Origin: an uncultured Acidobacteriaceae bacterium
GTDB lineage: Bacteria > Acidobacteriota > Terriglobia > Terriglobales > Acidobacteriaceae
DNA: 64,000 nucleotides
Assembly (NCBI GenBank): GCA_963824315.1
Contig: CAWGOX010000010.1
Span: 50,308 to 114,307 of the forward strand
Direction of reading: 5' to 3'
Below, piece by piece: positions 16,919 to 41,506 of this stretch. The first letter of the stretch is position 1. Every line of letters starts with the position of its first letter. Both the position numbers and the translations under genes were made by a program. The notes below the pieces were generated by a model. The model had not been told where the DNA came from and did not search any database. It saw nothing but the letters and a program-made list of their open reading frames with translations.

Positions 16919-16945
16919 GTAGATTTCGGTTGAAGGGTGCTGACC

Positions 16946-17899: not shown

Positions 17900-17963
17900 G
17901 CTAGTTGCGGAATGGATTGTTACAGATTCATTGCAAATTAAAGACCCCCGAAGGAGTTCTCGA

Positions 17964-18665: not shown

Positions 18666-18684
18666 GCGAGCGTTATTGGTCGAT

Positions 18685-18717
18685 CTAGGCGGAGATGGCT
18701 CGTGCATCTCCGCCTAG
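18685..18717 (+). terminator. strong hairpin between the cupredoxin gene and coxB
   Basis: Perfect 12-bp stem CTAGGCGGAGAT / ATCTCCGCCTAG with a 9-nt loop, 20 nt after the stop codon, followed by CTTCCCTAAAAA. It has no classic U-tract. Confidence 0.45.
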
Positions 18718-18768
18718 CTTCCCTAAAAACCCAGACATTCAAAGCTGATTCCACGAGGGCATAGCATC

Positions 18769-19572: not shown

Positions 19573-19630
19573 CGCTTGCAAACGCCGCGCTTAGGCGCGG
19601 CTAACTGGTAAGTCTCTGAGGTGAGGGTCA

Positions 19631-21415: not shown

Positions 21416-21451
21416 TTTAACTAACTAGTTAGTTAAATGAATTAATTTCCT

Positions 21452-22141
21452 ATGGCAACTACAGTACATGAACCGCCCAAGATCGACTCCAGCCGTTTGC
21501 CTGATGCTCAGCGTTCGGATCGAATTACGGATAATGGCGGTTGGCGAAATCTGGTTCCGGCGGGAGGAGACGTCCGGACCGCGTTCAAATATTCTCCGCC
21601 GCCATCCGCTACCGGCATCTGGGTCGTGATTTTTGCGATCACGATGATGTTCGCGGCGTTCACGAGCGCGTTGTTTGTGCGCAAGGGATCGTCTCTAGAC
21701 TGGCAGGGCTTTACGTTGCCGCCGATCCTCTATTTCAACACCCTGCTGCTTGTTGCCAGCGGAGTCACGTTGGAAATCGCGCGTCGTCGCGTGGCTACAT
21801 TCATGGGCGGTGTGAGGAGTCAGTTGGAAAGTCCTGCGCGATGGTTGTACATCACTTTGGCGCTAGGCCTACTCTTCGTGGCCGGACAGTATGTCGCCTG
21901 GTCTCAGTTGAGAGCCCGCGGACTCTATCTGGCAACGAATCCCAGCAGTTCATTTTTCTATGTACTGACTGTTACTCACGTCCTGCACGTTTTAGGTGGA
22001 CTCGGCGGACTGCTGTATGTGATCCGCAAGCTGAGTAAGTCGAACCTGCGAAGAAGCCAACTCGACGCGACGGCTCGCTACTGGCATTTTATGGGTGGGC
22101 TTTGGATTTACCTGCTCTTGCTGTTATGGGTGAAGCTTTAG
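21452..22141 (+). CDS. coxC: heme-copper oxidase subunit III family protein (copy 1)
   Basis: Multi-transmembrane protein with FFYVLTVTHVLHVLGG and ARYWHFMGGLWIYL, which are subunit III signatures. Confidence 0.85.
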   Translation: MATTVHEPPKIDSSRLPDAQRSDRITDNGGWRNLVPAGGDVRTAFKYSPPPSATGIWVVIFAITMMFAAFTSALFVRKGSSLDWQGFTLPPILYFNTLLLVASGVTLEIARRRVATFMGGVRSQLESPARWLYITLALGLLFVAGQYVAWSQLRARGLYLATNPSSSFFYVLTVTHVLHVLGGLGGLLYVIRKLSKSNLRRSQLDATARYWHFMGGLWIYLLLLLWVKL

Positions 22142-22191
22142 CAGATTGAATATTTCGTGATGGATCGTTTGACTGAGTAACGGGAGGCGAT

Positions 22192-22812
22192 GTGAGCCAA
22201 GCGGATTTGACCATGGAAACGCACGGGACCGGACTGATGGTAGGTCCCGCGTTTTCTATTCCTACGAAAAAGCTGGCGATGTGGCTGTTCATCATCGCCG
22301 ACACGATGACATTCGCGGCGTGTCTCGTGGCTTACGGATTCGTGCGCAATGGCTCTCCGAATTGGCCACGGCCATTCCACAGCATCCTCAACGTGTCGCT
22401 GATGACTTTTATTCTGCTGACGAGCAGCTTAACGATGCTACTGGGAGTGCGGGCGGCGAGGTTGGGTGACAAAGCGGCCGCGTTCCGCTGGACGATGATT
22501 ACGGCGGCGGCGGGAATTCTATTCGCGTTGCTACATATCAGAGAATGGATGGGGCTGATCGACGAAGGCATGACGATGTTCAAGAATCCCTGGGGCACTG
22601 GACTCTTCGGCGCATCGTTCTTCACGGTTACTGGCTTGCACCTTACACACGTTACCGGCGGCATTATCGCGCTGATCGTTGTAGGGCTTCGCTACAGGGG
22701 TGGACGCTATAACGCGGACGATATCGAAATCCTCGGTCTGTACTGGCACTTCGTAGATCTGGTGTGGATGTTCGTTGTGCCGTTGGTCTACCTGTTGAAT
22801 CTTGCACACTAG
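22192..22812 (+). CDS. coxC: heme-copper oxidase subunit III family protein (copy 2)
   Basis: GTG start 4 nt after GGGAGG. Contains FFTVTGLHLTHVTGG and GLYWHFVDLVWMFV. Confidence 0.85.
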   Translation: MSQADLTMETHGTGLMVGPAFSIPTKKLAMWLFIIADTMTFAACLVAYGFVRNGSPNWPRPFHSILNVSLMTFILLTSSLTMLLGVRAARLGDKAAAFRWTMITAAAGILFALLHIREWMGLIDEGMTMFKNPWGTGLFGASFFTVTGLHLTHVTGGIIALIVVGLRYRGGRYNADDIEILGLYWHFVDLVWMFVVPLVYLLNLAH

Positions 22813-22847
22813 ATTGGAAGAGTTTGGAAAAGTCAGGAGCGAAGGCC

Positions 22848-23171
22848 ATGGCAACGACACAAGCGCAAAACGGGACCGCTGAGGGAATTGGAAAAATTCT
22901 CTTTATCTATATTTGTCTGTTGGTGTTGGCTGGTTTGCAATTTGTAATCGCCTACCAAAATATTGATACGTCGCAAATGTTGATGCGGATGATGACGGTT
23001 GCGATCATCGAAGCTGGATTGGCGGGCATGTTCTTCATGCACTTGTGGTCCGAAAAGCGCGGTTTTATGCTCTTTGTAGTGGTATTTACGGTTTTTGTTC
23101 TTCTAGCGATGCAATACGGATGGACCGATAGTTCGAGGATGGTGGTGGGAGCGCCGTTTTCAAAGTTATGA
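22848..23171 (+). CDS. coxD: prokaryotic cytochrome oxidase subunit IV-like small membrane protein
   Basis: ATG at 22848 lies 8 nt after AGGAG. Three transmembrane segments and a GMFFMHLW motif typical of the COX4_pro family. The track ORF start at 22764 overlaps coxC and lacks a ribosome-binding site. Confidence 0.65.
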   Translation: MATTQAQNGTAEGIGKILFIYICLLVLAGLQFVIAYQNIDTSQMLMRMMTVAIIEAGLAGMFFMHLWSEKRGFMLFVVVFTVFVLLAMQYGWTDSSRMVVGAPFSKL

Positions 23172-23452
23172 CGCCGCGAATCTACAAGCAGACGTTGTCG
23201 CAAATGCTGTTCCGAACTCGGTTAATGAAGGTTGTGCTCGCCGGGCTGACCCTCCTCGCTTCCTCGCTTCCAGCTTTCTCACAAGGTTGCGCGCTGTGCT
23301 ACACGTCAGCGGCTTCCTCGGGCAATCGAATGATTCAGGCACTGCAAAGTGGAATTCTGATTTTGATCGTCCCACCAACACTCATGTCTGTCTTGATGAT
23401 TTTTATCGTGTATCGGAAACGCAATCAGTTTCGTAACGACGATGCTTCGTAG
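23168..23452 (+). CDS. small secreted/membrane-anchored CxxC protein, function unknown
   Basis: ATGA overlap with the coxD stop codon. Signal-like MKVVLAGLTLLASSLPAFS-QG, then CALC, then one C-terminal transmembrane segment (ILILIVPPTLMSVLMIFIVY) followed by RKRNQ. Confidence 0.5.
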   Translation: MTPRIYKQTLSQMLFRTRLMKVVLAGLTLLASSLPAFSQGCALCYTSAASSGNRMIQALQSGILILIVPPTLMSVLMIFIVYRKRNQFRNDDAS

Positions 23453-23472: not shown

Positions 23473-24861
23473 CTAAAAGAGTAACTTTCCACTATTTGAA
23501 TTCTGCTCGATGTATTTCTTGCTGTTGAATTTCTTTCCAGTGCTGGCGCCTGACATGTAGCGAATCAGCCCAAAGATAGGGCGATCAAACCAGGGCCGGT
23601 CGAATTTTCCTACGATTGACCACGCAATTCCCGCGTAGCCGTTGGGATCGCGGCCATCGAGTTCGTATTTATCATTGAGTTGTACAGCAATCTGATACGC
23701 CTGCGCTGCTGACGGGCTCCATTCCAGAATTTTTTTCGCCCAGTACATCCGCAGGTAGTTGTGCATCCAGCCAGTGTTCGTCATCTGACTTTGAGCCGCA
23801 TTCCAAAGTTCATCGTGAGTTTCGGCGTGCTCCAATTGCTGCTCGCTATAGAGAACGGGACGATCATCGTTCGCGTGCGCTGCCAAAGTACGATGGGCCC
23901 ACGGTTCTCCGCATTCAAAATTGTCGTAGTTAGGATTGAAGCGAACCAGGTTCACCGCCAGTTCCCGCCACGTAATGATTTGGTTTAGGAACGCCTCTTT
24001 GTCTTCTTTCGGAGCGTCGGCCTTTTCGACGGCCAGCGCAACCGTGATCGGACTGATATGTCCGAAGTGCAGATACGGCGAGAGGCGGCTGGTTCCGCTC
24101 AGCTCTGGTTTGTTGCGGAGGGTCGCGTAGGATTGCAATCCGTTCTTAAGAAAGTTATCCAATAATCGCAGAGCCTCTTTTGTGCCGCCGCGAAAGCCCG
24201 AGACTGGACCCACTGAAGTATCGAGCGGCCAATTCTGGGTGATATCAAATCCGGTATCAAGCGATTGAATTTCTGCGGGCTGATGCCATGCAACTTTCGC
24301 TTTCACGGTTGGGGATGCCACCAAAAAGCGCCCGAGCAACGCCTGCAATCGTGGTCGGATGATATGCGCTGCGTATTGTTCTTTCTGGAGTAGGTAGGAG
24401 GGCACGATAACGTCCGCGTCCACTGTCCACAAGGGCAGCACTAGCTTTGTTGCAGCCTTGCGCCGCCACGAGTCGAGCTCACGCATCGGATTCTCATCAC
24501 CGATCACGAGGGCAGCATTTACTTCTGTGCAGAATTTGATCAGGCTGTGTTCGGGGAACCGCCGCAGAATGAATCCGATGTTTCGCCGCTCTAGAGCTTC
24601 GGCGATGTCCGGAATGCCTTCGTTCAGGAAGCGATAGTGGCGCAGGTTGGCGTGGGGATAATAGGGGACGGGCGCGAAGAAAACGACCACTGGCTTTCCC
24701 AGTGCATTAGCGGCTTCGACCGCAACATCGAGCGCAGGATTATCCAAACCGCGCTGTGCCCGCTGCATCCAGTACACGACACAAGTGCCGTTGGGGGACG
24801 GAGGTCCTGAGCGCCGCACGGTCACGCGCGGATCGCTAGCCAGTCGACTTAGATCGTCCAA
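23473..24861 (-). CDS. phr: deoxyribodipyrimidine photolyase, class II CPD type
   Basis: VVYWMQRAQRGLDNPAL at the N-terminus. FAD-domain motifs SRLSPYLHFGHISP and WMHNYLRMYWAKKILEW, plus the C-terminal GLIRYMS. This pattern fits class II rather than class I photolyases. Confidence 0.9.
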   Translation of the reverse strand: MDDLSRLASDPRVTVRRSGPPSPNGTCVVYWMQRAQRGLDNPALDVAVEAANALGKPVVVFFAPVPYYPHANLRHYRFLNEGIPDIAEALERRNIGFILRRFPEHSLIKFCTEVNAALVIGDENPMRELDSWRRKAATKLVLPLWTVDADVIVPSYLLQKEQYAAHIIRPRLQALLGRFLVASPTVKAKVAWHQPAEIQSLDTGFDITQNWPLDTSVGPVSGFRGGTKEALRLLDNFLKNGLQSYATLRNKPELSGTSRLSPYLHFGHISPITVALAVEKADAPKEDKEAFLNQIITWRELAVNLVRFNPNYDNFECGEPWAHRTLAAHANDDRPVLYSEQQLEHAETHDELWNAAQSQMTNTGWMHNYLRMYWAKKILEWSPSAAQAYQIAVQLNDKYELDGRDPNGYAGIAWSIVGKFDRPWFDRPIFGLIRYMSGASTGKKFNSKKYIEQNSNSGKLLF

Positions 24862-24899
24862 TGAAAGCCATCCATTTGAAGTTCTTCAGGATATTCAGA

Positions 24900-25142
24900 T
24901 CACATCAACCAGGATGGCGCGACTTTCGATGCAGAGCCAATGACAATCTCGTCAAATTCGGCTCGGTTCATCTGAGTCAGGACTGCCTCAGCGTCGGTCG
25001 CTTCGCGTCTCACTCGTGCTGTTCGGAGCAGGTCGTTTAACAATCCCAAGCGACGGGTGAGATCAAGGATCAGCTCGATCCGTTGCTGGGTGGTCATTTC
25101 GCCCGCCAACTCAATTTGTGGAACTACCGGCTTTGCAAACAT
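24900..25142 (-). CDS. hypothetical protein (80 aa)
   Basis: An ORF that exactly fills the gap between the cfa-like gene and phr on the same strand. I recognise no motif. Confidence 0.35.
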   Translation of the reverse strand: MFAKPVVPQIELAGEMTTQQRIELILDLTRRLGLLNDLLRTARVRREATDAEAVLTQMNRAEFDEIVIGSASKVAPSWLM

Positions 25143-25312
25143 GAGTCACCCTTTCGCGAACACTTTTCAACTCATCCGATTTAACAGTAGATCAACCGCT
25201 CTTCACTAAGAATCAAATACTCAAAGGCTGTCGCTCTGGTTTGAATCACGCGACAATAAGTGGGGTGCCAATTGCTTTTGGAGAAAACACCTCCAGCGGC
25301 ATTCACCGCTCT

Positions 25313-26422
25313 TCAGTTGCGAAACACGTAGTGCGATACGAGCCATTCCTGGCCTCCGCGGTAACCCCATAGTTCCGCGCAAGCCATGAAAAAGACGCGC
25401 CAGTGGACGAACCAACGAAGAGTTTCTGCTTTCGCTTGTTTCAACGGAAGCCTTTTAGCATAGGTCTCAGCGAAAAGATCAAGTATCTCCGGGCGATTCG
25501 CGTCCATGTTGTTAAGCCAGGCTTCGGCAGTCTTTTGGTAGTGAGTACCGTTCACTTGCCAATGGTTTTGTAATCGCAAATCGCGCTGGAAATACAAGAG
25601 CAAATCGTCGCTCGGCATGATCCCGCCTGTAAAGAAATGGCGAGCCATCCAATCGCTTTCATCTTTAATGTCGAAGGGATAAGCAAACCGCGCATTCGTA
25701 AAAATGTGGACGAAGAGTTTGGCACCCGGTCGCATCCATGAAGAAATACGCTGTAGCAACATTTCGTAATTCCGCATGTGTTCAAACATTTCGACTGAGA
25801 CCACGCGATCAAATTTCGCGGCCGCTTCGAAGTCGTTCATGTCTGCGGTGAGGACGGTCAGGTTATCGAGACATCGCGCCTTGGCTTGGGCATCGATGAA
25901 CCGCTTTTGGGAAGAAGAATTGGAAACGCTGACAATGGTGGATTGAGGAAAGCGTTCCGCCATCGACAGAGAGAGCGATCCCCATCCGCAGCCGAGTTCA
26001 AGCACTCGCTGACCGTTGGCCAATTCCGCGCGTTCCATGGTGAGAGAGAGCATCGCTGCTTCCGCTTGATCCAGGGTAGTGGTACCGTCCTGCCATAGTG
26101 CGGAGCTGTACTTCAGGTGCTTGCCAAGTGCTAATTCGAAAAAGCGTGCAGGGACTTCGTAGTGCTGAGCGTTCGCAGCCGCAGTTTCAATCGCGATTGG
26201 CCCGTTCTTTAACTCCTGAATGAATTGCATCAAATGGGACTGCTGCATTTCCGGTGAGGCTTTGGTCTCGTCCCGCAAACGTTGACGCAGCAGACGTCGT
26301 ATGCCGGCGCGGATCAGCAAATCGGGAACCAAGTCGCGCTCGAGTAAAGCGAGGTCCCATGAACTTTCTCCCGCTCGAGAATGCGCCGATGTGGTCCGTG
26401 TCATCGTTTGTGTGTCGTTCAT
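25313..26422 (-). CDS. cyclopropane-fatty-acyl-phospholipid synthase family SAM-dependent methyltransferase
   Basis: [24 protein letters not shown], the SAM motif [11 protein letters not shown], and the FEHM and [12 protein letters not shown]-terminal signatures of the CFA synthase / mycolic acid methyltransferase family. Confidence 0.85.
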
Positions 26423-26461
26423 ATCGCAATGCCTTTCATGGCGATCATTGAAGAAGAGGGA

Positions 26462-27085
26462 TTACTTGTGGTCTTGGGTGAGCGCTGCGCTTAGACTCGC
26501 GGCCTTGGCTTCATCGAAGATGCCTTGCGATCTCCACAAGACGTCGCCATTCCGATTGACCAGAAATTCGTAGATCGTCTTTTGATCATCGATAAGAAGC
26601 GCTTCGCAAAACGGCTTCTTATCCAGATATAAAGTGATGGTGCGTTCGCGTGCATTGCGATCTGGTATGCCTCGCCGCATGCCGCTATCAATGAACCAGC
26701 GTGTGAGGGCCATCGGCCTCTCGATCGTGGGCAACTCGTAATATTGAAAGTTCAGACGACCCGAGCCTTGGTTCAGATTTTCGAATCGTTTCATTTCTCG
26801 GAGCCAGGTATCGACATCTTTTTGCTGCTCTCGCTCGAAGGCCACCAAGAGAAGATTGTTGTCGCCTTCGAAATCGGTGGGCAAATTGAAAGAACGTTTT
26901 TCGAGGTTGGATGCCGTTAGGGTGGGGAAGTGCCCCATCCGACGGCTCTCCGTCGATGCCACGGCCATGGTTCCTCCAAAATACAGCGTTAGCGTGAAAA
27001 TAATAGTCGTTATAACGACTATTATTGTGGTAGCCGCGACTTGTCTATCCTGCTTCCTTATGGTCGATAGCAGATGTTTGCTCAC
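26462..27085 (-). CDS. membrane-anchored hypothetical protein
   Basis: N-terminal transmembrane segment (ATTIIVVITTIIFTLTLYFGG). ATGA-type 4-nt overlap with the upstream DUF1295 gene. No recognised catalytic motif. Confidence 0.5.
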   Translation of the reverse strand: MSKHLLSTIRKQDRQVAATTIIVVITTIIFTLTLYFGGTMAVASTESRRMGHFPTLTASNLEKRSFNLPTDFEGDNNLLLVAFEREQQKDVDTWLREMKRFENLNQGSGRLNFQYYELPTIERPMALTRWFIDSGMRRGIPDRNARERTITLYLDKKPFCEALLIDDQKTIYEFLVNRNGDVLWRSQGIFDEAKAASLSAALTQDHK

Positions 27086-27873
27086 GCTGCTGACTTCCTA
27101 AACCATGGGACAAAGGCGCTCGTGGTCTGCTGATAGCGACGGTAGGCATCGCCCTTGCTGCGTAGCGCCTGCGCTTCGGTCGCGGGAATTCCAGTCACAC
27201 GAAAGAGGAAATAGAACATCAGCAACGGGCAGATGATGGCGAGCCATCCATAAGGAGAGGCAATGGCAAAAACTGCCCATGCCAGCCACACCAGCCACTC
27301 GAAGAAATAGTTTGGGTGCCGCGAATACTTCCAGAGTCCGCGTTGACAGACTTGTCCATTGGACGACGGATCGCGCTTGAAAGCTGCGAGTTGTGCATCG
27401 GCGATCGCTTCGCCAGCGATTGCTACCAACCAAATCGCGACGCCCACGTATTCAAGTGGCGACATCGTCGGCGCGGGATTCAGCGCAGCCATCAGGAAGG
27501 GAAGCGAGAGTACCACGTCGAGCAGTCCCTGGAATTCGAAGAACAGTAAGAACTTGAGTGGGAGGTTCGTCTTCCACTGTCGGCGCAGTTCCTGATAGCG
27601 GCCTTCTTCGGGTTCACCGACAATGCGCACCAGCAAATGAATACCGAGGCGGATTCCCCAAACCGCAGCCATCCCTGCCATCAACCATTTGCGCGCTACG
27701 AAGCCGGAACCGAGCACTGCATAGGTGACGGCTAATAGCGGTACGCCGAATGCCCATCCGGGATCAACGACGCTGGCGTTGTTAGTCCGCAGATGAACGA
27801 GCCATAGCACGAACATCATCGCCAGTACGAGCGCAGCGCCTGGCAGAACGAGATGGAGAACGGAATGGAGCAT
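27082..27873 (-). CDS. DUF1295 family membrane protein (steroid 5-alpha-reductase / ICMT-like fold)
   Basis: Polytopic membrane protein with the C-terminal RGLWKYSRHPNYFFEWLVWLAWA motif characteristic of DUF1295. Confidence 0.8.
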   Translation of the reverse strand: MLHSVLHLVLPGAALVLAMMFVLWLVHLRTNNASVVDPGWAFGVPLLAVTYAVLGSGFVARKWLMAGMAAVWGIRLGIHLLVRIVGEPEEGRYQELRRQWKTNLPLKFLLFFEFQGLLDVVLSLPFLMAALNPAPTMSPLEYVGVAIWLVAIAGEAIADAQLAAFKRDPSSNGQVCQRGLWKYSRHPNYFFEWLVWLAWAVFAIASPYGWLAIICPLLMFYFLFRVTGIPATEAQALRSKGDAYRRYQQTTSAFVPWFRKSAA

Positions 27874-27920
27874 CTAAAACCCAAGAATGCACTAGCGTAG
27901 CGGTATCAATGTCACAAACT

Positions 27921-28262
27921 CTAACGCCCGACTTTCAGAACTAGATCAGAAAGTGGCTCTTCCGATCTCAACTTAAAAAGTTGGAGGAGCACGTAACCTG
28001 ACATCGCGATATTTCCCAACGACATGATCAGGACAAACCAAACTACTTTTGCGAGCAGTCCGCGTTCTTTAAAACAGACCCAGACAAAAAATGTAAGAAA
28101 TCCAAAGTAGGCATCAAACAATGTCGCGACTGCCCAAGGGCTATCGCTCCAGCTAAATTCCGATCCGGCCAGCCGCAGGGGCTTGTGCAGGCTGACGTAG
28201 GAAGTCATGACAATCATCCAAATGAAAATGGCACCGAAGATGATTTTCAAAAATAGCCGCAT
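27921..28262 (-). CDS. small integral membrane protein, DUF1475-like
   Basis: Four predicted transmembrane segments. PWAVATLFDAYFGFLTFFVWV resembles DUF1475. The family name is from memory. Confidence 0.55.
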   Translation of the reverse strand: MRLFLKIIFGAIFIWMIVMTSYVSLHKPLRLAGSEFSWSDSPWAVATLFDAYFGFLTFFVWVCFKERGLLAKVVWFVLIMSLGNIAMSGYVLLQLFKLRSEEPLSDLVLKVGR

Positions 28263-28350
28263 AAGTTCTCAGTCCCTATTCCGAATCAAGTACGGGGATA
28301 CCCACTAATAAGTACGTCCGTGAGCGAGCTGCGGATTGTTCCCGGAAACG

Positions 28351-29271
28351 CTAAAACCTGGCGCCCAGCGCCGACAACTGTTGTTCTAGAGCGACAAAAT
28401 CGTTCAGCACCAGCCAGCGAGATCCCGCAGTAGCGCGCTCCAGTCCAAGCGCAGGCGGGCCACCCAGCCACAGCGCGGTGGATCGTTGGGCCTTGCGGGC
28501 AATAAAGTTCAACTCCTGCAAAAGGTCGGGACCGGGAACACTACTGAGGCTCAGCAGCACCACATCCGCGTCACTTTTTCGTGACGCCCACACGATGTCC
28601 GCGGCGGGCAAGTCGGATCCCAAATAAATCACGCCAAGGCCGCCGACCGCGGTCAGCATGGCAGCGGCAAGATTGGCGAATCCGTGGCGCTCATTTCGGG
28701 GCGTCGCTAACAACACACGAGCCGGTGGATTGGTTGGCGAATACGTTCGGACCATCGAAGCGAGCAGCGCGCTGAGCAGGTTGGTCAACATGTGCTCCTG
28801 AGCAATACTGCATTTCCCGGCGTGCCAGCGTTCGCCGATGATCCGCATCAGAGGCAGTGCTGCTTCATGCACAAAGTCTCTAGGACTGGCCATCGCAGTG
28901 GCCAGACGGTTGATTTCGCGATCCGTGGCGGCGTAATCGAAGCGTTCAATCTCACGCAGGATGGGCAGTAGCAAATCCTGCGACGCCGCCTCTTTCCGGA
29001 TCGTTTTCTTGTTCTTGGCGGCGAGAGAATCACCCGCATCGAGAAGCTCGCGCAATTGTCCATCTTTAATCGCAGCGACCTGTCCGATTGCGTGCCCTTG
29101 TTCGACCACCTGCCGCAGAAGAATCAGTCGCTTAATTTGCTCCGCGGAATACACACGTCCGCGCGCAGAACGTGAGGGTACAACCGCGCTGTAACGACGC
29201 TCCCAAGCCCGAAGCGTGTCGAGGGGAATGCCCGTCAGTTTGGCAGCAGCGCTGATGGGATACGAGGACAT
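28351..29271 (-). CDS. carH: MerR-family, B12-binding light-responsive transcriptional regulator (CarH/LitR type)
   Basis: N-terminal MerR helix-turn-helix (YPISAAAKLTGIPLDTLRAWERRY). A four-helix-bundle Wx9EH motif, RWHAGKCSIAQEH, at 28792-28827. A Rossmann B12 domain, VLLATPRNERHGFANLAAAML ... YLGSDLP ... LGG, that parallels Thermus CarH. The start is chosen at ATG 29271; the track uses TTG 29298. Confidence 0.85.
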   Translation of the reverse strand: MSSYPISAAAKLTGIPLDTLRAWERRYSAVVPSRSARGRVYSAEQIKRLILLRQVVEQGHAIGQVAAIKDGQLRELLDAGDSLAAKNKKTIRKEAASQDLLLPILREIERFDYAATDREINRLATAMASPRDFVHEAALPLMRIIGERWHAGKCSIAQEHMLTNLLSALLASMVRTYSPTNPPARVLLATPRNERHGFANLAAAMLTAVGGLGVIYLGSDLPAADIVWASRKSDADVVLLSLSSVPGPDLLQELNFIARKAQRSTALWLGGPPALGLERATAGSRWLVLNDFVALEQQLSALGARF

Positions 29272-29292
29272 TCGATGGGTGGATCGTAACAC

Positions 29293-29340
29293 TGACAAGT
29301 ATAGCTGTCAATGAATTGTCATGGACAAATGATTGACAAT
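29293..29340. promoter_or_regulatory. candidate CarH/LitR operator and divergent promoter region
   Basis: Clustered TGACA/TGTCA half-sites: TGACA 29293, TGTCA 29306, TGTCA 29317, GACAA 29324, and TTGACA 29333-29338. Spacing is about 10-13 bp, and two short palindromes are present (TGACA-N8-TGTCA and TTGTCATGGACAA). The site lies between carH and the desaturase operon. Confidence 0.3.
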
Positions 29341-29418
29341 ACCTAGGGCGAGATGTACAAGAAGATGAAGGCAATCCGCAGCTAGCCCTGGAAACGTACC
29401 TGATACGAAGGGCTCAAA

Positions 29419-30264
29419 GTGCCCCACCTCAAGGAACTTTCTGTGATCGAGCGCTTGAACCACTACAGTTTCGGGACGGTCATACCGTTCGTGCTACTGC
29501 ACGCGGGATGCGTAGCGTTATTTTTCATACCCTTTCGTTGGTCGTACGTTTGGCTGATGCTGGCTTTATATGCGGTCCGGATGTTTGGCATCACGGCTGG
29601 ATACCACCGCTATTTCAGTCATCGCACCTACAAAATGGCCCGAGCATGGCAATTCCTGATGGCGTTCCTGGCTGAGACGTCGGGACAAAAGGGTGTTCTG
29701 TGGTGGGCGGCTCATCATCGCGTTCATCATCAGCACGCGGACAAGGAACGCGACATTCATTCACCAGGGCTACGCGGATTCTGGTGGGCTCATGTTGGGT
29801 GGGTGCTGTCCAACGACTATGACGGATACGATCCGGCGCTGATCAAAGACTTCAGCAAATTTCCTGAACTGCGCTGGCTTGACAAGCATTACCTAGTGCC
29901 CCCCGCAGTGCTTGGCGGATTGCTGCTGGTGGTTGGTGGGACGGGGGCTTTTGTTTGGGGATTTGTTGCATCGACTGTTCTGTTGTTCCACGGGACGTTT
30001 GCGATCAATTCGCTGGCGCATCTTTGGGGGTCGCGACGGTTTGATACTCCGGACGATAGCCGCAACAATTTCGTGCTTGCCATCGTGACGCTGGGTGAGG
30101 GGTGGCACAACAATCACCATAAGTTCATGTATGCATGTCAGCAGGGGATTCGTTGGTGGGAAGTGGATTTCACCTTTTACGCGCTGAAGGTCTTGAGTTG
30201 GTTGGGAGTTACGCGAGACCTGCGTGGCATCCGCCTGCCGATTTCAGAGGGTAATGCGCGATGA
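29419..30264 (+). CDS. acyl-CoA/acyl-lipid delta-9-type fatty acid desaturase
   Basis: Three histidine boxes (HRYFSH, HHRVHH, HNNHH) and the transmembrane topology typical of membrane desaturases. GTG start. Confidence 0.9.
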   Translation: MPHLKELSVIERLNHYSFGTVIPFVLLHAGCVALFFIPFRWSYVWLMLALYAVRMFGITAGYHRYFSHRTYKMARAWQFLMAFLAETSGQKGVLWWAAHHRVHHQHADKERDIHSPGLRGFWWAHVGWVLSNDYDGYDPALIKDFSKFPELRWLDKHYLVPPAVLGGLLLVVGGTGAFVWGFVASTVLLFHGTFAINSLAHLWGSRRFDTPDDSRNNFVLAIVTLGEGWHNNHHKFMYACQQGIRWWEVDFTFYALKVLSWLGVTRDLRGIRLPISEGNAR

Positions 30265-31529
30265 GTCGGATCGCGGTGATTGGTGCGGGCATTTCGGGTA
30301 TGGCTGCTGCTTACCTTCTTAGTGAGAAGCACGAGGTAAGTTTGTTCGAGAAGGAAGATCGCCTGGGTGGCCACACTCACACGCACACGATCGAAACCAG
30401 TTGCGGACCGCTGCCAATCGATACGGGATTTATTGTCCACAACGATCGAACATATCCGAATCTGGTGCGGCTATTCAGTCGCATGGGATTGAAGCGACAA
30501 AAGAGCGATATGTCATTTGGAGTCTCCTGCCGTCGCACGGGATTTGAATACAGCAGTCGCGGATTGCGAGGACTTTTTGCCGGCGGAAACTGGCATCGTC
30601 CTGGGCATTACAAATTTCTCTCGGAGATTGTGCGATTCAACCGGGAGGCGCGTCGCTTACTAGCGGATCCCGCTAGAGCAGATATCACCTTGCGCGACTA
30701 TTTGCGTTCTCATCAATTTGGCGGAGAGTTTTCCCGCTACTATCTGCATCCCATGGCGGCGGCGGTTTGGTCTATGTCGCTCGAAGAAATTGAAGAGTTT
30801 CCCGCCTTGACGTTAATTCGCTTTTTCGACAATCACGGTTTCCTTGGATTAACGACGCAGGCGCAGTGGTACGTGTTGCAAGGTGGTAGCAGCACGTACA
30901 TTCCGCCGATGACGGCTCCTTATAGGGAGAGGATTCGGCTCGGTGCAAAGATTGGTTCGGTGACTCGGACTGCATCAGCAGTGCAAATTGAATTCACTGA
31001 TCGAGCGCCTGAGAAGTTCGATCAAGTGGTCTTCGCGTGTCACGCTCCTCAAACGATGCAGTTGCTGCGAGATGCAACGCCGGCTGAGACCCAAGTTTTG
31101 GGAAGCTTTCGAACAAGTCGTAACGAAACGGTGCTTCATACGGACTCCCGGTTGTTGCCCACACAACCAGAAGCTCGCGCGTCGTGGAATTACCACCTCG
31201 GGATTGAGCGTCGGGCGGCCACTCTGACGTATCACATGAACCGTCTGCAGGGATTGCCGACGAAGGAGGACTATTGCGTCACCCTGAATGACACCGCGTC
31301 AATCGATTCGCGGTGCGTTCTGCGCGAGATGACCTACTTTCATCCTCTATATACATTGGACGCGATTCGCGCTCAGGCGCGCTGGTCGGAGATTAGCGGC
31401 CGCCATCGGGCGCACTTCTGCGGCGCTTACTGGGCTTACGGATTCCACGAAGATGGGCTGAATTCGGCGATCCGCGTTGCAGAGACTCTCGGCGTTCGTT
31501 GGGCTGTTGGCTCGGAGGCGGCGGCGTGA
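30261..31529 (+). CDS. NAD(P)/FAD-dependent oxidoreductase, amine-oxidase / phytoene-desaturase-like
   Basis: The N-terminal dinucleotide fold IAVIGAGISGMAAAYLL ... VSLFEKEDRLGGHT and the C-terminal FCGAYWAYGFHEDG motif of this family. 4-nt overlap with the desaturase gene. Confidence 0.85.
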   Translation: MSRIAVIGAGISGMAAAYLLSEKHEVSLFEKEDRLGGHTHTHTIETSCGPLPIDTGFIVHNDRTYPNLVRLFSRMGLKRQKSDMSFGVSCRRTGFEYSSRGLRGLFAGGNWHRPGHYKFLSEIVRFNREARRLLADPARADITLRDYLRSHQFGGEFSRYYLHPMAAAVWSMSLEEIEEFPALTLIRFFDNHGFLGLTTQAQWYVLQGGSSTYIPPMTAPYRERIRLGAKIGSVTRTASAVQIEFTDRAPEKFDQVVFACHAPQTMQLLRDATPAETQVLGSFRTSRNETVLHTDSRLLPTQPEARASWNYHLGIERRAATLTYHMNRLQGLPTKEDYCVTLNDTASIDSRCVLREMTYFHPLYTLDAIRAQARWSEISGRHRAHFCGAYWAYGFHEDGLNSAIRVAETLGVRWAVGSEAAA

Positions 31530-32326
31530 TGGAGTCGGGAATCTATTCCGGAACATTGCGCCATCGGCGCTTCAGCCCGGCAGTGCACGAGTTTACCTAT
31601 CCCTTGTTCATGGTGTTTCTCGATATTGAACGGATGCCTGAGTTGATGGATGTGTCTCCGATTGCCGGGTATAACCGGCGCAACCTTGTTTCGTATCAGG
31701 AGCGCGATCACTTCGGAGATCCCGCGAAGAAGCTGCGGGACAGGATGTCGATCGAGGCGCAACGAAAAGGAATTGCAATCCCAGAGGGACGAATTTTCCT
31801 GCTCACGCATCTTCGCTACCTCGGATACAACTTCAATCCCGTTTCTTTTTTCTACTGCTACGACCGGAAAGACCGGCTGCAAACAATTATGGCTGAAGTG
31901 AACAATACGTTTGGAGAGACGCAAAACTACTGGCTCACACCGGCTGTTGAACTTCCAGCGGGGCTGAACAAGAAATATCGATTTCCAAAGACATTCCATG
32001 TGTCGCCGTTTATGAAGCTGGGACACGAATATGAATGGACGTTCACGCCTCCGGGCGAGGGACTGGTGACGGAATGTATCAGTCATGAAGATGGGAAAGT
32101 CATTTTCGATTCGACGTTGAAGATGGAACGGAGTGAGTGGTCGCGAGCCTCGCTGCATCGGGCGATTGTGCGGTTTCCGTGGATGACGGCGAAGGTGATT
32201 GCCGCCATTCATTGGCAGGCTCTGCGACTGTTGATAAAGCGCGTTCCTGTGGCACCACATCCGGGTGCGGGACATTTTGAACCGGCAACAGCGCGACATT
32301 TGGGGGCGTCATGGCGAGCGGAGTAA
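31529..32326 (+). CDS. DUF1365 family protein
   Basis: ATG overlaps the upstream TGA (TGATG). The N-terminus SGIYSGTLRHRRFSPAVHEFTYPLFMVFLDI is the characteristic DUF1365 start. This family is usually found next to cfa-like genes. Confidence 0.8.
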   Translation: MESGIYSGTLRHRRFSPAVHEFTYPLFMVFLDIERMPELMDVSPIAGYNRRNLVSYQERDHFGDPAKKLRDRMSIEAQRKGIAIPEGRIFLLTHLRYLGYNFNPVSFFYCYDRKDRLQTIMAEVNNTFGETQNYWLTPAVELPAGLNKKYRFPKTFHVSPFMKLGHEYEWTFTPPGEGLVTECISHEDGKVIFDSTLKMERSEWSRASLHRAIVRFPWMTAKVIAAIHWQALRLLIKRVPVAPHPGAGHFEPATARHLGASWRAE

Positions 32327-33660
32327 GTACGAATACCTCTGACAGTATGGTTCACTCACAGAATATTGTTCATAAGATCGCGAGGGCGATATTTCTGAAG
32401 ACGTTGTCTGGTCTTAGGGACGGGAGTCTGGAGTTAGTTTGTCGCGAGGGCACGTATCACTTCGGAGATCGTCATCAGGGCGATCGTCGTCAGAACGGCG
32501 AAAACGAAGAACTTCACGCCGTGGTCGCGGTGAACAACGAACGCTTTTTCCTGCGGGCGCTGCTAGCCGGAGATGTTGGTGTAGGCGAGGCCTACATGGA
32601 TGGCGATTGGTCCACACCGGATCTGGTGGCCGTAGTACGTTTGGCGGTGCGAAATCTTGAACAGCTTGACGGCAGCAATCGACTCTTTACGGCGTTTCGA
32701 AGGGCTGCGGATTTAATCTCTCACCGCAGCAATCGCAACACGCAGTCTGGAAGCCGCCGCAACATTTCTTATCATTACGATCTAGGCAACGATTTTTATC
32801 GTCTCTTCCTTGATCGCAATCTGGCGTATTCATGCGCTTATTACGAAAGATCAGATGATTCGCTAGAGCAGGCGCAAATCAACAAGTTCGATCGTATCTG
32901 CCGGAAGCTTGAGTTGAACTCTCAAGATCACGTTCTGGAAATTGGGACTGGCTGGGGTGGATTCGCAGCATATGCCGCGGAGACTTACGGATGCCGTATC
33001 ACCACCACCACCATCAGTCGAGAGCAGCACGAGTACGCACGAGAAATGTTTGCGCGGATTCCGGCGGGCGGAAGAATCGAATTGCTGCTCGAAGATTATC
33101 GAAATCTAAAGGGGCAATACGACAAGATTGTCAGTATCGAAATGTTCGAGGCGGTCGGCTATGAACATTACGATGATTATTTCGGAGCCTGCAATCGTCT
33201 GCTTAAGCCGCAGGGCGCTATGTTGCTGCAGACCATTACGATTCTGGAGTCGAAGTTCCAGCAGTATCGCAAGCAAAGCGATTGGATCAAGAAATACATC
33301 TTTCCTGGCGCTGAGCTGGCGTCAGTGACGGAGATTGAACGATCGCTAGTTCGCGCGACGGGGATGAAGTTATTTAATCTGGAAGATATCGGGATGCACT
33401 ACTCCTTGACGCTGCGCGAGTGGCGTCGCCGGTTTTTGGATCGGTTGCCGGAGGTGCGTGAGCAGGGTTTTGACGATCGCTTCGTCCGTATGTGGGACTA
33501 CTATCTCGCCTATTGCGAAGGCGCGTTTCGCGAGGGATACATCGGCGACGTGCAACTGGTACTCACAAAAGTAGCAAACCCGAAGCCGCTGTTTGGCGAT
33601 AGAAATATCGACGGCGGGACGGCGCACGCTGAACGGGGCGGAGCGTTGGCGAGAGTGTAG
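32311..33660 (+). CDS. cfa: cyclopropane-fatty-acyl-phospholipid synthase family SAM-dependent methyltransferase
   Basis: ISYHYDLGNDFYRLFLDRNLAYSCAYY, VLEIGTGWGGFA, IEMFEAVG and MWDYYLAYCEGAFREGYIGDVQ are canonical CFA synthase motifs. Confidence 0.9.
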   Translation: MASGVSTNTSDSMVHSQNIVHKIARAIFLKTLSGLRDGSLELVCREGTYHFGDRHQGDRRQNGENEELHAVVAVNNERFFLRALLAGDVGVGEAYMDGDWSTPDLVAVVRLAVRNLEQLDGSNRLFTAFRRAADLISHRSNRNTQSGSRRNISYHYDLGNDFYRLFLDRNLAYSCAYYERSDDSLEQAQINKFDRICRKLELNSQDHVLEIGTGWGGFAAYAAETYGCRITTTTISREQHEYAREMFARIPAGGRIELLLEDYRNLKGQYDKIVSIEMFEAVGYEHYDDYFGACNRLLKPQGAMLLQTITILESKFQQYRKQSDWIKKYIFPGAELASVTEIERSLVRATGMKLFNLEDIGMHYSLTLREWRRRFLDRLPEVREQGFDDRFVRMWDYYLAYCEGAFREGYIGDVQLVLTKVANPKPLFGDRNIDGGTAHAERGGALARV

Positions 33661-33814
33661 CGAACGTGCGAACATAGTTGAGAACAAGTTGAAAGACAGT
33701 GCGGACTGCCTGGGAAGACATCGACCGGGTAGTTTCAGAAATTGGGTTTCGCATCTCCGGCCCCGTAGGCGCGAGCCAACACAATTCTCACGAACCGTAT
33801 TTACTTTGGAGATC

Positions 33815-34351
33815 ATGAACATGAAGACTCTTGCACGATTCGCATTTTGCGTAGCTTTGTTGTCGCTCACTCCTCTCATGCTGTTCGCCGGTTCTGCGCC
33901 CGCGATCGGCAGCATGGCGCCGGAATTCACGCTCAATTCACAGGAAGGCTCTCCCATTAGCTTGAAAGACTATCGCGGCAAATGGGTGGTGCTCTATTTT
34001 TATCCAAAAGACTTCACCAGCGGCTGCACCATTGAAGCGCATAACTTTCAGCGCGATCTGGAGCAGTACAAACAGAAGAATGCCGTGATTCTTGGCGTTA
34101 GCGTTGATAGCGCGGATTCGCACAAGCAGTTTTGCACCAAGGAAGGCCTGAACTTCAAATTGCTGGCCGACACCGACCACAAGGTTTCGAGTGACTATGA
34201 CTCGCTCACCAACATGGGGCTGGTGAAGTTTGCGGCGCGTCACACGTTCATCATTAACCCCGACGGAAAAGTCGTGAAGGAATACATGGATGTGAATCCG
34301 AGCCAGCACAGTGCTGAAGTGTTGGCGGCGCTCGCAGACTTGCAGAAGTAA
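33815..34351 (+). CDS. bcp: secreted peroxiredoxin, Bcp/PrxQ type
   Basis: ATG at 33815 after GGAG. Signal peptide MNMKTLARFAFCVALLSLTPLMLFA. Active-site motif YFYPKDFTSGCTIEA. The track ORF start at 33593 would add 74 non-homologous residues. Confidence 0.85.
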   Translation: MNMKTLARFAFCVALLSLTPLMLFAGSAPAIGSMAPEFTLNSQEGSPISLKDYRGKWVVLYFYPKDFTSGCTIEAHNFQRDLEQYKQKNAVILGVSVDSADSHKQFCTKEGLNFKLLADTDHKVSSDYDSLTNMGLVKFAARHTFIINPDGKVVKEYMDVNPSQHSAEVLAALADLQK

Positions 34352-34375
34352 ATAGTGACAATGCAGGGGACGCCG

Positions 34376-34401
34376 TAGAGACGGGGCAAGCCCCGTCTCT
34401 A
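34376..34401 (+). terminator. Rho-independent-like terminator after bcp
   Basis: Perfect 11-bp stem TAGAGACGGGG / CCCCGTCTCTA with a 4-nt loop, followed by TTCGGCGATTT. Confidence 0.6.
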
Positions 34402-34444
34402 TTCGGCGATTTGTATAACAACTCCATCCCATGAACTCCATCCG

Positions 34445-35467
34445 ATGAAATACGACGCCATCCTTATTACATCGTTCGGTGGTCCTGAGCGTCCTGAGGA
34501 TGTCACGCCATTTTTGGAGAATGTGCTGCGCGGGAAGAATGTACCTCGCGAGCGCATGCTTGAAGTGGCGGAGCACTACTATCACTTCGGGGGCAAGAGC
34601 CCGATCAACGAACAGAATCGTCAACTGATTTTCGCGTTGAAAGACGAATTGGAGCAGCACGGGCCGCATCTTCCGATCTATTGGGGTAATCGCAACTGGC
34701 ATCCGATGCTCGCGGACACATTGCGGCAGATGAAGGATGACGGAATCCAGCGAGCCCTCGCTTTTGTAACCTCCGCCTACAGTTCCTATTCAAGTTGTCG
34801 GCAGTATCGCGAGGATATTGCGCGCGCACAGGCAGCGGTGGGAGTGGGCGCGCCGGTGGTCGATAAGATTCGCGCTTTTTATAATCATCCGGGATTTGTG
34901 GAGGCAGTCGTCGAGCAAGTGGGAGAAGCGCTGGTGCAGTTTCCGGAAGAGCGTCGCGAAAACGTACATCTCGTCTATACAGCCCACAGCATTCCGATGG
35001 GGATGGCGGAAAACTCCGATTACGAGAAGCAACTGCGAGAGACCGCGAAGCTCGTCGCGGAGAGCTTGGGCAAGAAAAATTGGCAGCTCGTCTATCAGAG
35101 CCGCAGTGGACCGCCATCGCAGCCTTGGCTGGAGCCGGACATTCTCGACCATTTGCGAGAAATCAAGAGTGGTGGAGCGACCGATGTAGTGATCGCCCCG
35201 ATTGGTTTTGTCTCCGATCATATGGAAATTCTGTTTGATCTGGACACACAGGCCCGCGATTTGTGCGCGGAATTGGGATTGAATATGGTCCGCGCGAAGA
35301 CGGTCGGGACTCATCCTCGATTCGTTACGATGATTCGCGAACTGATCTGCGAACGGATCGAAGAGAATCGAGCGCGGTTGGCTTTGGGAGTTCTCGGTCC
35401 TCGTCCTGACCTGTGCCCGGAGGATTGCTGTCCTGTGCCGAAGAGGCCGTCCAAGCCCACGATCTAG
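34445..35467 (+). CDS. hemH: ferrochelatase
   Basis: AILITSFGGPERPEDVTPFLENV, YTAHSIP and FVSDHMEILFDLD motifs. Confidence 0.9.
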   Translation: MKYDAILITSFGGPERPEDVTPFLENVLRGKNVPRERMLEVAEHYYHFGGKSPINEQNRQLIFALKDELEQHGPHLPIYWGNRNWHPMLADTLRQMKDDGIQRALAFVTSAYSSYSSCRQYREDIARAQAAVGVGAPVVDKIRAFYNHPGFVEAVVEQVGEALVQFPEERRENVHLVYTAHSIPMGMAENSDYEKQLRETAKLVAESLGKKNWQLVYQSRSGPPSQPWLEPDILDHLREIKSGGATDVVIAPIGFVSDHMEILFDLDTQARDLCAELGLNMVRAKTVGTHPRFVTMIRELICERIEENRARLALGVLGPRPDLCPEDCCPVPKRPSKPTI

Positions 35468-39085: not shown

Positions 39086-39331
39086 GCCTCGTAAAGCTGG
39101 CGGTTGCCAGCGATGATTTTCAAGATTGCATGGAGAAGAAATCCGTCTTGGGGGGGAGACGGAATGAAAATGATCGCAAGAAGCAGCGTCAAATGCTAAC
39201 TTCGACGGCCATTTTCGACCCCCCGATTCTGCAAGGGGATGGGCAAAAGATCAAGATGAAAGAGTTTGCATCAGGTTGTAACCTTTGCACCGAATGCGCA
39301 TCCTAAACCATGGGGGAATCTGGGAGGAAGC

Positions 39332-41504: not shown

Positions 41505-41506
41505 TC

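Follow-up and report, generated by a model that had tools for sequence, protein, structure and literature searches.

The DNA analysed here, referred to as the window, is a stretch of 64,000 nucleotides (nt) from a contig of an uncultured Acidobacteriaceae bacterium (CAWGOX010000010.1, assembly GCA_963824315.1), in which genes for probable lipid-modifying enzymes lie on either side of a gene for a CarH-type repressor. An earlier note on this DNA had described the region 23473-35467 as a supercluster for photo-oxidative stress centred on a B12 photoreceptor. Genes were called from an open reading frame (ORF) listing combined with Pfam, NCBIfam and Protein Data Bank (PDB) searches, and every gene which that note had named was recovered in its place, with three start codons corrected (Table 1). 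On the minus strand carH is followed by genes for two membrane proteins (DUF1475 and DUF1295), a thioredoxin-fold protein and a short methyltransferase of the CMAS family, and then by an 80-residue ORF (orf80) and a photolyase gene (phr). On the plus strand an operon for a desaturase, an FAD amine-oxidase-like protein (FAD oxidase), a DUF1365 protein and a long CMAS protein (cfa) is followed by genes for a peroxiredoxin (bcp) and ferrochelatase (hemH). In our reading, this region of a Terriglobales acidobacterium serves to remodel membrane lipids, is inducible by light and by stress, and is built around a CarH repressor of the adenosylcobalamin (AdoCbl) type; we place this reading just on the probable side. 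The form of regulation that we favour is dual control, by light and B12 through CarH and by an unlinked extracytoplasmic function (ECF) sigma factor. Every regulatory and chemical step set out below is read from sequence.

Table 1. Genes and predicted control elements of the carH locus, in window coordinates.
Feature	Coordinates	Strand	Basis or remark
Class II CPD photolyase (phr), 462 aa	23473..24861	-	Pfam DNA_photolyase
80-aa ORF, function unassigned	24900..25142	-	Adjoins photolyase gene
Short CMAS-family S-adenosylmethionine (SAM) methyltransferase, 369 aa	25313..26422	-	Pfam CMAS, E 1e-41
Membrane-anchored thioredoxin-fold protein without CxxC, 207 aa	26462..27085	-	Predicted model
DUF1295 membrane protein, steroid-reductase/ICMT-like superfamily	27082..27873	-	Pfam DUF1295, E 2e-71
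Short DUF1475 membrane protein, 113 aa	27921..28262	-	Pfam DUF1475, E 6e-12
ECF-type promoter-like motif, CAATCC-N16-CGTACT	28311..28338	-	25.5 bits, second best in window
carH, class I (B12-binding) CarH/LitR-type repressor, 306 aa	28351..29271	-	Pfam MerR_1, B12-binding_2 and B12-binding
PcarH, predicted carH promoter, TTGACA-N17-TACGAT	29283..29311	-	Promoter scan
Putative 33-bp palindromic operator, TGTCAA-N5-TGTC-N5-GACA-N5-TTGACA	29306..29338	no strand	Conservation
P1, predicted sigma-70-type promoter of lipid operon, TTGACA-N17-TACAAG	29333..29361	+	Sequence reading
P2, ECF-type promoter-like motif, CAATCC-N17-CGTACC	29372..29400	+	27.2 bits, best in window
Stearoyl-CoA-desaturase-like (delta-9 type) membrane desaturase, 281 aa	29419..30264	+	Pfam FA_desaturase
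FAD amine-oxidase-like protein, UfaD-like	30261..31529	+	Pfam Amino_oxidase, E 3e-23
DUF1365 protein, UfaO-like	31529..32326	+	Pfam DUF1365, E 6e-75
Long CMAS-family SAM methyltransferase, 449 aa, UfaM-like by position (cfa)	32311..33660	+	Pfam CMAS, E 4e-90
Bcp/PrxQ-type peroxiredoxin with signal peptide (bcp)	33815..34351	+	Pfam AhpC-TSA, E 3e-41
Stable bcp-hemH hairpin with 11-bp stem and weak U tract	34376..34401	+	Predicted fold
Ferrochelatase (hemH)	34445..35467	+	Pfam Ferrochelatase, E 1.5e-91

The carH gene carries every sequence hallmark of an AdoCbl photoreceptor. Its product matches Thermus thermophilus CarH (PDB 5c8d) with an E-value of 6e-24. The MerR helix-turn-helix (Pfam MerR_1, E 5e-13) aligns over residues 5-69 with the T. 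thermophilus DNA-binding domain, and in the four-helix bundle (Pfam B12-binding_2, E 6e-12) the segment 'ERWHAGKCSIAQEH' aligns with 'EAWHRGEIGVAEEH' of the T. thermophilus protein. The W-x9-E-H motif of this bundle caps the adenosyl group; it is kept in the window protein, as is the E-x-H of the B12 domain, where 'NERHGFA' aligns with 'GERHEIG' of T. thermophilus. All of the residues concerned (W149, E159 and H160 in the bundle, E194 and H196 in the B12 domain) are invariant among 18 homologues. Conservation of W-x9-EH together with the lower-ligand E-x-H therefore sets the window CarH apart from the LitR classes that have no B12-binding domain.

CarH homologues and a genome scan put the window in the order Terriglobales of the Acidobacteriota. 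The association of carH with the lipid genes was traced by tblastn searches with the window proteins against 59 carH loci. The divergent arrangement, carH on one side and desaturase-FAD oxidase-DUF1365-CMAS on the other, was present in all 41 Terriglobales-type loci, in one Bryobacterales locus (L058) and in one Vicinamibacterales locus (L059). These 43 loci, 44 with the window, span three orders and comprise all acidobacterial loci carrying both parts, with CarH identities between 40 and 76%. Chance adjacency of the core genes was rejected on this synteny. The link between carH and the cluster drawn in the earlier note is thus real: it is conserved in 44 loci, with an operator-like element lying over both divergent -35 boxes.

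That element, TGTCAATGAATTGTCATGGACAAATGATTGACA at 29306-29338, lies in the 147-bp spacer between carH and the desaturase gene. Its four half-sites are spaced by 11 bp inside each arm and by 8 bp over the centre; the two outermost coincide with the TTGACA -35 boxes of PcarH and P1. Published CarH operators repeat TnnACA every 11 bp and overlap a -35 box (PMC9304148); the half-sites fit this repeat and bury two TTGACA boxes, and we predict that the element is the CarH operator. It was found in 42 of 43 intergenic regions and holds 44 bits of information. Further copies were sought by pattern and by position weight matrix (PWM), at a threshold of 8 bits across the 64-kb window and of 12 bits across 0.9 Mb of loci. 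The operator is unique in the window (PWM match 29304-29340) and occurs exactly once in each locus that bears the lipid (ufa-linked) cluster; the window scan gave no second copy upstream of orf80-phr, bcp, hemH or msrB. Weaker relatives precede most carH genes of the Blastocatellia type (four such loci gave no match at 12 bits), and because carH there faces a different divergent gene, the operator travels with carH and not with the lipid operon.

Both promoters overlapped by the operator are themselves conserved. On the carH side 42 of 43 loci have TAnnnT 17-18 nt past TTGACA. This -10 element ends 11 nt ahead of the ATG in the window (29272-29282) and 9-14 nt ahead of it in nearly all loci, which makes a leaderless or almost leaderless carH mRNA probable. 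On the desaturase side TTGACA-N17/18-TAnA(A/T)n occurs in 38 of 43 loci, and the Bryobacterales locus has a near-consensus TTGACA-N17-TAAAAT. Searched against Rfam at gathering thresholds, the whole window gave zero matches and hence no cobalamin riboswitch.

Alignment of the spacers revealed two further conserved blocks downstream of P1, gcAATCCg and CGTACt, separated by a gap of fixed length (16-17 nt) and variable sequence. A pattern search of the window for this motif, CAATCC-N16/17-CGTAC in the consensus of the two modules, returned six matches against 1.2 expected, and the two highest by PWM (Table 1; the next, at 17.9 bits, is intragenic) stand before the two lipid modules. One, P2, lies 19 nt upstream of the desaturase start codon; the other lies 15 nt past the carH stop codon and 49 nt upstream of the DUF1475 gene. 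The strict motif is found ahead of the desaturase operon in 35 of 44 loci and just past carH in 19 of 43, where five more loci have relaxed matches. It is absent in its strict form from the Bryobacterales and Vicinamibacterales loci, as well as from L038/39, and the PWM scan of the window placed none upstream of orf80-phr, bcp or hemH, the next-best matches being intragenic.

The promoter consensus of RpoE/ChrR is TGATCC-N16-CGTA (PMC5507510), and the window motif shares 8 of its 10 specified bases at the right spacing; it also resembles the promoters of Streptomyces sigma-LitS, GCATCCR-N15-CVGAAD (PMC11519972). On a Rhizobium plasmid with a ChrR locus, TGATCCG-N15-CGTA precedes the sigma gene, the FAD oxidase (ufaD-like) gene and a DUF2177 gene. 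A conserved two-block motif that shares the RpoE/ChrR core and spacing is most simply an ECF promoter of that type, and an unlinked ECF sigma factor probably drives both lipid modules. The earlier note had proposed that CarH had replaced sigma-E/ChrR outright, and a motif of this kind upstream of both modules argues against so clean an exchange. Formation of an RNA structure by the AATCCG and CGTAC blocks was considered and rejected: the blocks are not complementary, and the spacer keeps its length, not its pairing.

A gene for such a sigma factor was sought near carH. As the earlier note had observed, the window holds no sigma-E/ChrR pair: Pfam scans of ORFs of about 100-350 aa for Sigma70_r2/r4 and the ChrR cupin, and tblastn with the Rhizobium sigma/ChrR pair, found none there. 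The sole tblastn match to a sigma factor in the 59 loci is at 1923-2973 (minus strand) of L019, 1.1 kb past hemH, where an ECF sigma gene accompanies a membrane anti-sigma factor (ZAS, HxxxCxxC). It was rejected as the cognate factor: the TAATCC-N13-CGTAT upstream of it has a spacer three bases shorter, and the pair is not conserved at this position.

Matches to AATCC-N16/17-CGTA were also seen in antisense orientation, inside the long CMAS gene of the window (32688-32713 and 33034-33060, minus strand) and inside the desaturase gene of ten loci, about 570 bp upstream of carH (for example near 9434 of L007). These could be antisense ECF promoters or mere coding constraint.

Furan fatty acids offer a framework for the enzymes of the two modules. 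In the published pathway the CMAS-like UfaM methylates vaccenate, the FAD amine-oxidase-like UfaD makes a conjugated diene and the DUF1365 protein UfaO inserts O2 to give the furan ring; FufM, 26% identical to UfaM, adds a second methyl group (PMC7380195). In Rhodopseudomonas palustris ufaD, ufaO and ufaM are contiguous, the CMAS protein RPA2569 being encoded after DUF1365 (PMC7380195). The window order of FAD oxidase, DUF1365 and CMAS is the R. palustris order, and a desaturase gene precedes it. The desaturase aligns over its full length with SCD1 (PDB 4ymk, E 5e-30), including the His boxes HRYFSH, HHRVHH and HNNHH, and is by this similarity a stearoyl-CoA-desaturase (SCD)-like enzyme of the delta-9 type, as the earlier note had called it. 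Its position upstream suggests that it could supply the monoene substrate.

The other enzymes were compared with the cluster proteins of the Rhizobium ChrR-locus plasmid and of a plasmid locus of Salinivibrio. The FAD oxidase is 41-43% identical to the FAD oxidases of both clusters, and the DUF1365 protein is 35-37% identical to the proteobacterial cluster members. The two CMAS proteins are of different types, about 25% identical to each other: the long one is 46% identical to the CMAS protein encoded after DUF1365 in Salinivibrio, and the short one 47.5% identical to that encoded after DUF1295 in the Rhizobium ChrR locus, whose ChrR-adjacent DUF1295 protein is in turn 41% identical to that of the window. 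This cross-comparison separates a module A (FAD oxidase, DUF1365, long CMAS) from a module B (DUF1295, short CMAS). The product of module A is by our inference a monomethyl furan fatty acid or a related lipid; that module B performs a further modification, for which the short CMAS may be FufM-like, we infer more weakly.

According to the model that we favour, oligomers of AdoCbl-CarH would sit on the four half-sites in the dark and block both divergent promoters. Light would photolyse AdoCbl and release CarH, followed by transcription of the plus-strand operon and of carH, with read-through into the genes that follow carH. The SCD-like desaturase would then convert a saturated acyl chain into a monoene, the long CMAS would methylate the monoene, the FAD oxidase would turn the methylated monoene into a conjugated diene, and DUF1365 with O2 would convert the diene into a furan fatty acid. 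Furan fatty acids scavenge singlet oxygen and radicals. The minus-strand module (DUF1475, DUF1295, the thioredoxin-fold protein and the short CMAS) would form a second lipid-modifying set, in which the short CMAS may carry out a second methylation as FufM does. Under singlet-oxygen or membrane stress, the CAATCC-N16/17-CGTAC promoter of each module, of the RpoE/ChrR or the LitS type, would be read by an ECF sigma factor encoded elsewhere; this layer would be independent of CarH or downstream of it, depending on where the sigma gene is controlled. In its most specific form the model states that, in Terriglobales and related Acidobacteriota, AdoCbl-CarH directly gates fatty-acid remodelling, and not the making of carotenoids, through a palindromic operator of four half-sites that both divergent promoters share, in tandem with an RpoE/ChrR-like ECF promoter, the operon thereby integrating light and photo-oxidative damage, and this we put forward tentatively, as a possibility somewhat short of probable.

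Several observations weigh against this model. The B12-binding Pfam domain of CarH scores 25.2 bits, under the gathering threshold of 32.1, and the Gly of ExHxxG is replaced. The operator consists of two repeat pairs in inverted orientation (2+2), whereas footprinted CarH operators have 3-4 tandem repeats (PMC9304148), and the -10 hexamer of P1 (TACAAC/G) is without the usual final T. The ECF-type motif departs from TGATCC at two positions, and because its -35 block also resembles the GCATCCR of sigma-LitS, the family of the sigma factor is uncertain. Neither the window nor, in 58 of the 59 genome-scan loci, the stretch within 10 kb of carH yielded an ECF sigma or ChrR gene. Finally, the long CMAS may not be a UfaM, because Rhodobacter sphaeroides makes furan fatty acids without needing RSP1089, the CMAS protein encoded after ufaO (PMC7380195).

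The alternative that survives best leaves the regulation as proposed and changes the product: the CMAS proteins would form lipids with cyclopropane rings or with mid-chain methyl or methylene groups, and some other lipid would be the substrate of DUF1365 and the FAD oxidase. The lipids of Terriglobia are mostly iso-branched chains, which counts for a product other than a furan. In NCBIfam both CMAS proteins come nearest to cyclopropane-fatty-acyl-phospholipid synthase, with scores below the cut-off, and the dispensable RSP1089 of R. sphaeroides points the same way (PMC7380195). A dedicated desaturase upstream, however, would supply the monoene substrate, and we consider a non-furan product unlikely, if a serious alternative.

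The remaining alternatives concern regulation. CarH might control a distant ECF sigma gene whose product reads CAATCC-N16/17-CGTAC, with light as the only input, amplified through the sigma factor, and with no ChrR system. Such a cascade from CarH to an ECF sigma factor is conceivable because the sigma-LitS -35 element is similar: in Streptomyces a B12-dependent LitR controls litS, the targets have ECF-type promoters, and the GCATCCR of sigma-LitS resembles GCAATCCG (PMC11519972). CarH-family regulators and ECF sigma factors are also paired in Myxococcus (PMC9304148). Unlike in Streptomyces, however, no sigma gene adjoins the window carH, and the predicted targets are lipid and not crt genes. 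The single operator in each locus, across 0.9 Mb, nowhere adjoins a sigma gene; the -10 block CGTAC is closer to the CGTA of RpoE/ChrR promoters than to the CVGAAD of LitS; and an operator placed directly on P1 would be redundant in a pure cascade. Taken together, these points make a pure cascade decidedly improbable.

Slightly more doubtful still is the exchange envisaged in the earlier note, in which CarH would be the sole dedicated regulator of the whole 12-kb set in place of sigma-E/ChrR. The CAATCC...CGTAC blocks would then have another role, for instance as 5'-untranslated-region elements or as the site of another factor. This exchange would fit the lack of a sigma/ChrR pair in the window or the flanks of the 59 loci, and the Bryobacterales and Vicinamibacterales loci, which keep the CarH operator without the strict ECF-type motif, indicate that control by CarH alone can exist in the phylum. 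The motif nevertheless has the two-block form of a promoter, with a spacer fixed in length and variable in sequence; its two positions, each 19-60 nt ahead of a start codon, are independent; experimentally defined RpoE/ChrR promoters have the same ATCC(G)-N15/16-CGTA core and spacing (PMC5507510); and no CarH operator was found in front of phr, bcp or hemH. Least probable of all is that CarH regulates only itself, perhaps with distant carotenoid genes, the lipid operons being driven solely by ECF-type promoters and the divergent layout being historical: the weak P1 -10 element (TACAAC, no final T, uncalled by the promoter scan), the position of the ECF-type motif as the element nearest the desaturase start codon and the Blastocatellia carH genes of the same kind that face unrelated Fasciclin genes would suit it, but the desaturase-side TTGACA is as conserved as the carH-side copy, a TAnAA block follows it at 17-18 nt in 38 of 43 loci, with TAAAAT in L058, a locus wholly without the ECF-type motif, and the divergent pairing is kept across three orders at CarH identities of 40-76%.

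Several known systems come close to this locus. With the sigma-E/ChrR regulon and the UfaM-UfaD-UfaO(-FufM) enzymes of R. sphaeroides and R. palustris (PMC7380195, PMC5507510) it shares the FAD amine-oxidase-like, DUF1365, CMAS and photolyase families, the ufaD-ufaO-CMAS order of R. palustris, a second CMAS protein about as distant from the first (~25% identity) as FufM is from UfaM, and, in its promoter-like motif, the ATCC-N16/17-CGTA of the sigma-E consensus. It differs in having a B12-type CarH with its operator at the centre and no linked rpoE-chrR, an operon headed by an SCD-like desaturase, and a photolyase of class II where theirs is of class I; the phylum, Acidobacteriota, is also different. 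The gene set of the window had been equated with the conserved core of that regulon. Its families do occur in proteobacterial ChrR-linked clusters, the Rhizobium plasmid carrying an ECF sigma gene, ChrR, DUF1295, a short CMAS and DUF1365 with a divergent FAD oxidase. The six-gene core comprises phrB, cfaS, RSP1091, RSP1090, the SDR gene RSP1087 and RSP1088 (PMC5507510); four of these families (photolyase, CMAS, FAD oxidase and DUF1365) are present in the window, whereas DUF1295 falls outside the core, although it adjoins ChrR in Rhizobium. Pfam scans found no SDR in the window, and no RSP1088-type lipoprotein was seen there either, without a search aimed at RSP1088.

Regulators of the wider LitR family are already known beside such genes. 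In Pseudomonas putida and P. mendocina a class II LitR lies beside phrB and furan-fatty-acid genes, with light induction proven, and in V. cholerae the MerR-like VCA0056 (class IV LitR) forms one operon with phr and a hypothetical gene and mediates a blue-light response (PMC9758184, PMC5241685). As in Pseudomonas and on the Salinivibrio plasmid, the window has a MerR/LitR/CarH-family regulator in the company of a photolyase gene and of genes for an FAD oxidoreductase, DUF1365 and CMAS (ufaM). The Pseudomonas and Vibrio regulators, however, have no B12-binding Rossmann domain and depend on LOV partners or unknown signals, whereas the window CarH keeps the AdoCbl-binding hallmarks; the Salinivibrio MerR regulator aligns with it over the helix-turn-helix only. 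A plasmid database held 37 homologues with the CarH B12 domain, mostly from Thermus, and those from Comamonas and Allorhizobium had no adjoining ufa genes. With class I CarH/LitR of T. thermophilus, Bacillus megaterium and Myxococcales (PDB 5c8d/5c8e; PMC9304148) the window protein shares domain architecture and key residues, autoregulation (predicted here), a putative operator of 11-bp TnnACA-type repeats that bury a TTGACA -35 box, and the often divergent promoters. It differs from them in its predicted targets, fatty-acid-modifying instead of carotenoid genes, and in the inverted 2+2 palindrome that stands in place of 3-4 tandem repeats.

Given the published light induction of the Pseudomonas genes that lie with LitR, phrB and the furan-fatty-acid enzymes, the general idea of a LitR-family regulator beside such genes is already known. 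A literature search returned no publication joining CarH with Acidobacteria, with DUF1365 or with furan or cyclopropane fatty acids. What it did not return is a class I CarH on these lipid genes, together with the palindromic operator, the tandem ECF-type motif and conservation across three orders.

The CarH photoreceptors characterised in the surveyed literature control carotenoid genes, and an acidobacterial clade acting on furan-type genes would widen the reach of B12-based light sensing. If correct, the model would describe the first case of lipid chemistry under B12-dependent light control, and a natural promoter with two inputs through which abundant non-phototrophic soil bacteria defend themselves against singlet oxygen; the Terriglobia, which are hard to study, would gain a testable light response. 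A sigma-70 promoter under CarH in tandem with an ECF-type promoter suggests that two ancient photo-oxidative stress circuits were merged, not exchanged. The symmetric 33-bp operator serving two promoters bears on how CarH tetramers place their DNA-binding domains and may be useful for optogenetic tools, and the operon nominates the SCD-like desaturase as the supplier of monoenes for furan fatty acids.

Outside the divergent core the locus is looser than the word supercluster implies. Of 33 loci, 6 have a photolyase gene no more than 6 kb from carH; of 32, 18 have bcp after cfa and 14 have hemH within 1.3 kb of cfa. Neither the operator nor the ECF-type motif was found before orf80-phr, bcp or hemH in the window. 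The photolyase and its 80-aa partner, the predicted periplasmic Bcp and hemH fit the locus in function and have joined it in some genomes only. On the carH side, the series DUF1475, DUF1295, 207-aa protein and short CMAS is found in 12 of 33 loci, and DUF1475 is conserved after carH in 14 loci. The nearest relative is a JGI metagenome contig, with 93% identity in CarH. Its minus-strand genes run in the same order as in the window from carH as far as phr and on into cox genes, and on the desaturase side it ends within about 1.4 kb.

Many genomes have short gaps between cfa and bcp and between bcp and hemH (the latter gap about 48 bp in most), so read-through from the lipid operon into these genes is possible. 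In the window, however, the bcp-hemH spacer of 93 nt folds into a hairpin (centroid -29.6 kcal/mol, z-score -4.2); the terminator scan did not call this hairpin, because it has no T run. That hemH is placed to remove the photosensitiser protoporphyrin, as had been suggested, is weakly supported. The surroundings are respiratory housekeeping genes: COX2, COX1, two COX3 and COX4_pro at 11735-23452, with a UbiA-type prenyltransferase gene further upstream, and ATP synthase at 41031-47763. About 4 kb past hemH lies msrB (39266-39925, plus strand), for a methionine sulfoxide reductase B with a SelR domain and an N-terminal extension of about 100 aa; neither a CarH-type operator nor an ECF-type motif was found upstream of it.

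The overlapping stop and start codons reported for the cluster are real, at 4 nt (desaturase/FAD oxidase), 1 nt (FAD oxidase/DUF1365), 16 nt (DUF1365/cfa) and 4 nt (DUF1295/207-aa protein), and the larger gaps, besides those given above, are 170 bp between the short CMAS gene and the 80-aa ORF and 155 bp between cfa and bcp. The revised start codons are those of carH, DUF1365 and bcp. For carH we chose ATG 29271 instead of TTG 29298, because its homologues are about 305 aa long; for DUF1365 we propose ATG 31529, residue 11 of the ORF from TTG 31499, which gives the 1-nt overlap with the FAD-oxidase stop codon; and for bcp we read ATG 33815, from which the product begins, by inspection, with a clear signal peptide, MNMKTLARFAFCVALLSLTPLMLFAGSAPA.

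NCBIfam gave no equivalog-level name to any cluster enzyme, all scores being below the cut-off; TIGR00591 (phr2) reached 449 bits on the photolyase. By full-length similarity this enzyme is of class II, as had been stated, and not of class I: its best PDB match is 8oet (E 6.6e-105), followed by 2xry of M. mazei (E 7e-104) and 3umv (E 3e-80), whereas the class I E. coli enzyme 1dnp gives E 8e-12. The DUF1475 protein matches positions 134-230 of its Pfam model only, which is the C-terminal half. The AlphaFold model of the 207-aa protein (pLDDT 77.5) has an N-terminal helix (residues 2-36) and then a thioredoxin fold with no CxxC, and Foldseek relates it to TlpA/ResA/Sco/AhpE-like structures (E ~1e-6); in Pfam it has a weak match to ATP10 and no significant family, and about 1500 homologues make it widespread. 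Judged by its predicted fold, it is a membrane-anchored thioredoxin-fold protein and a conserved member of the carH-side module. The 80-aa ORF had zero Pfam or NCBIfam matches. Homologues of it lie directly upstream of phr in L002 (11510-11701), L024 (14001-14144) and L037 (13942-14115), and L064 has a called gene of 80 aa in the corresponding place, which suggests a small partner protein of the photolyase.

Other loci differ on the carH side. Where DUF1475, DUF1295 and the short CMAS are missing (loci of the L004-L026 type, ~10950-14400), carH is followed by DUF2177 and a DUF1295 paralogue of 34-38% identity, preceded in L004, L006 and L011 by an SDR-like gene, and the ECF-type motif just past carH is retained in roughly half of the loci of this type. 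DUF2177 and DUF1295 are also present in the Rhizobium ChrR cluster. In the Blastocatellia-type loci CarH is 42-46% identical to that of the window and its gene faces Fasciclin genes. In one metagenome-assembled genome (MAG) of this group (L046, ~9100-9750) these are followed by genes for a photolyase, phytoene synthase and a CrtI-like protein, a classical CarH context; in another (L051, ~9100-9750) they are followed by genes for a DUF2867 protein and a photolyase-related DPRP, with no carotenoid gene among the ORFs scanned. In the Terriglobales locus L017 a Fasciclin and DUF4397 pair is preceded by AGATCC-N17-CGTAT, and the Fasciclin proteins may belong to the same light and stress regulon.

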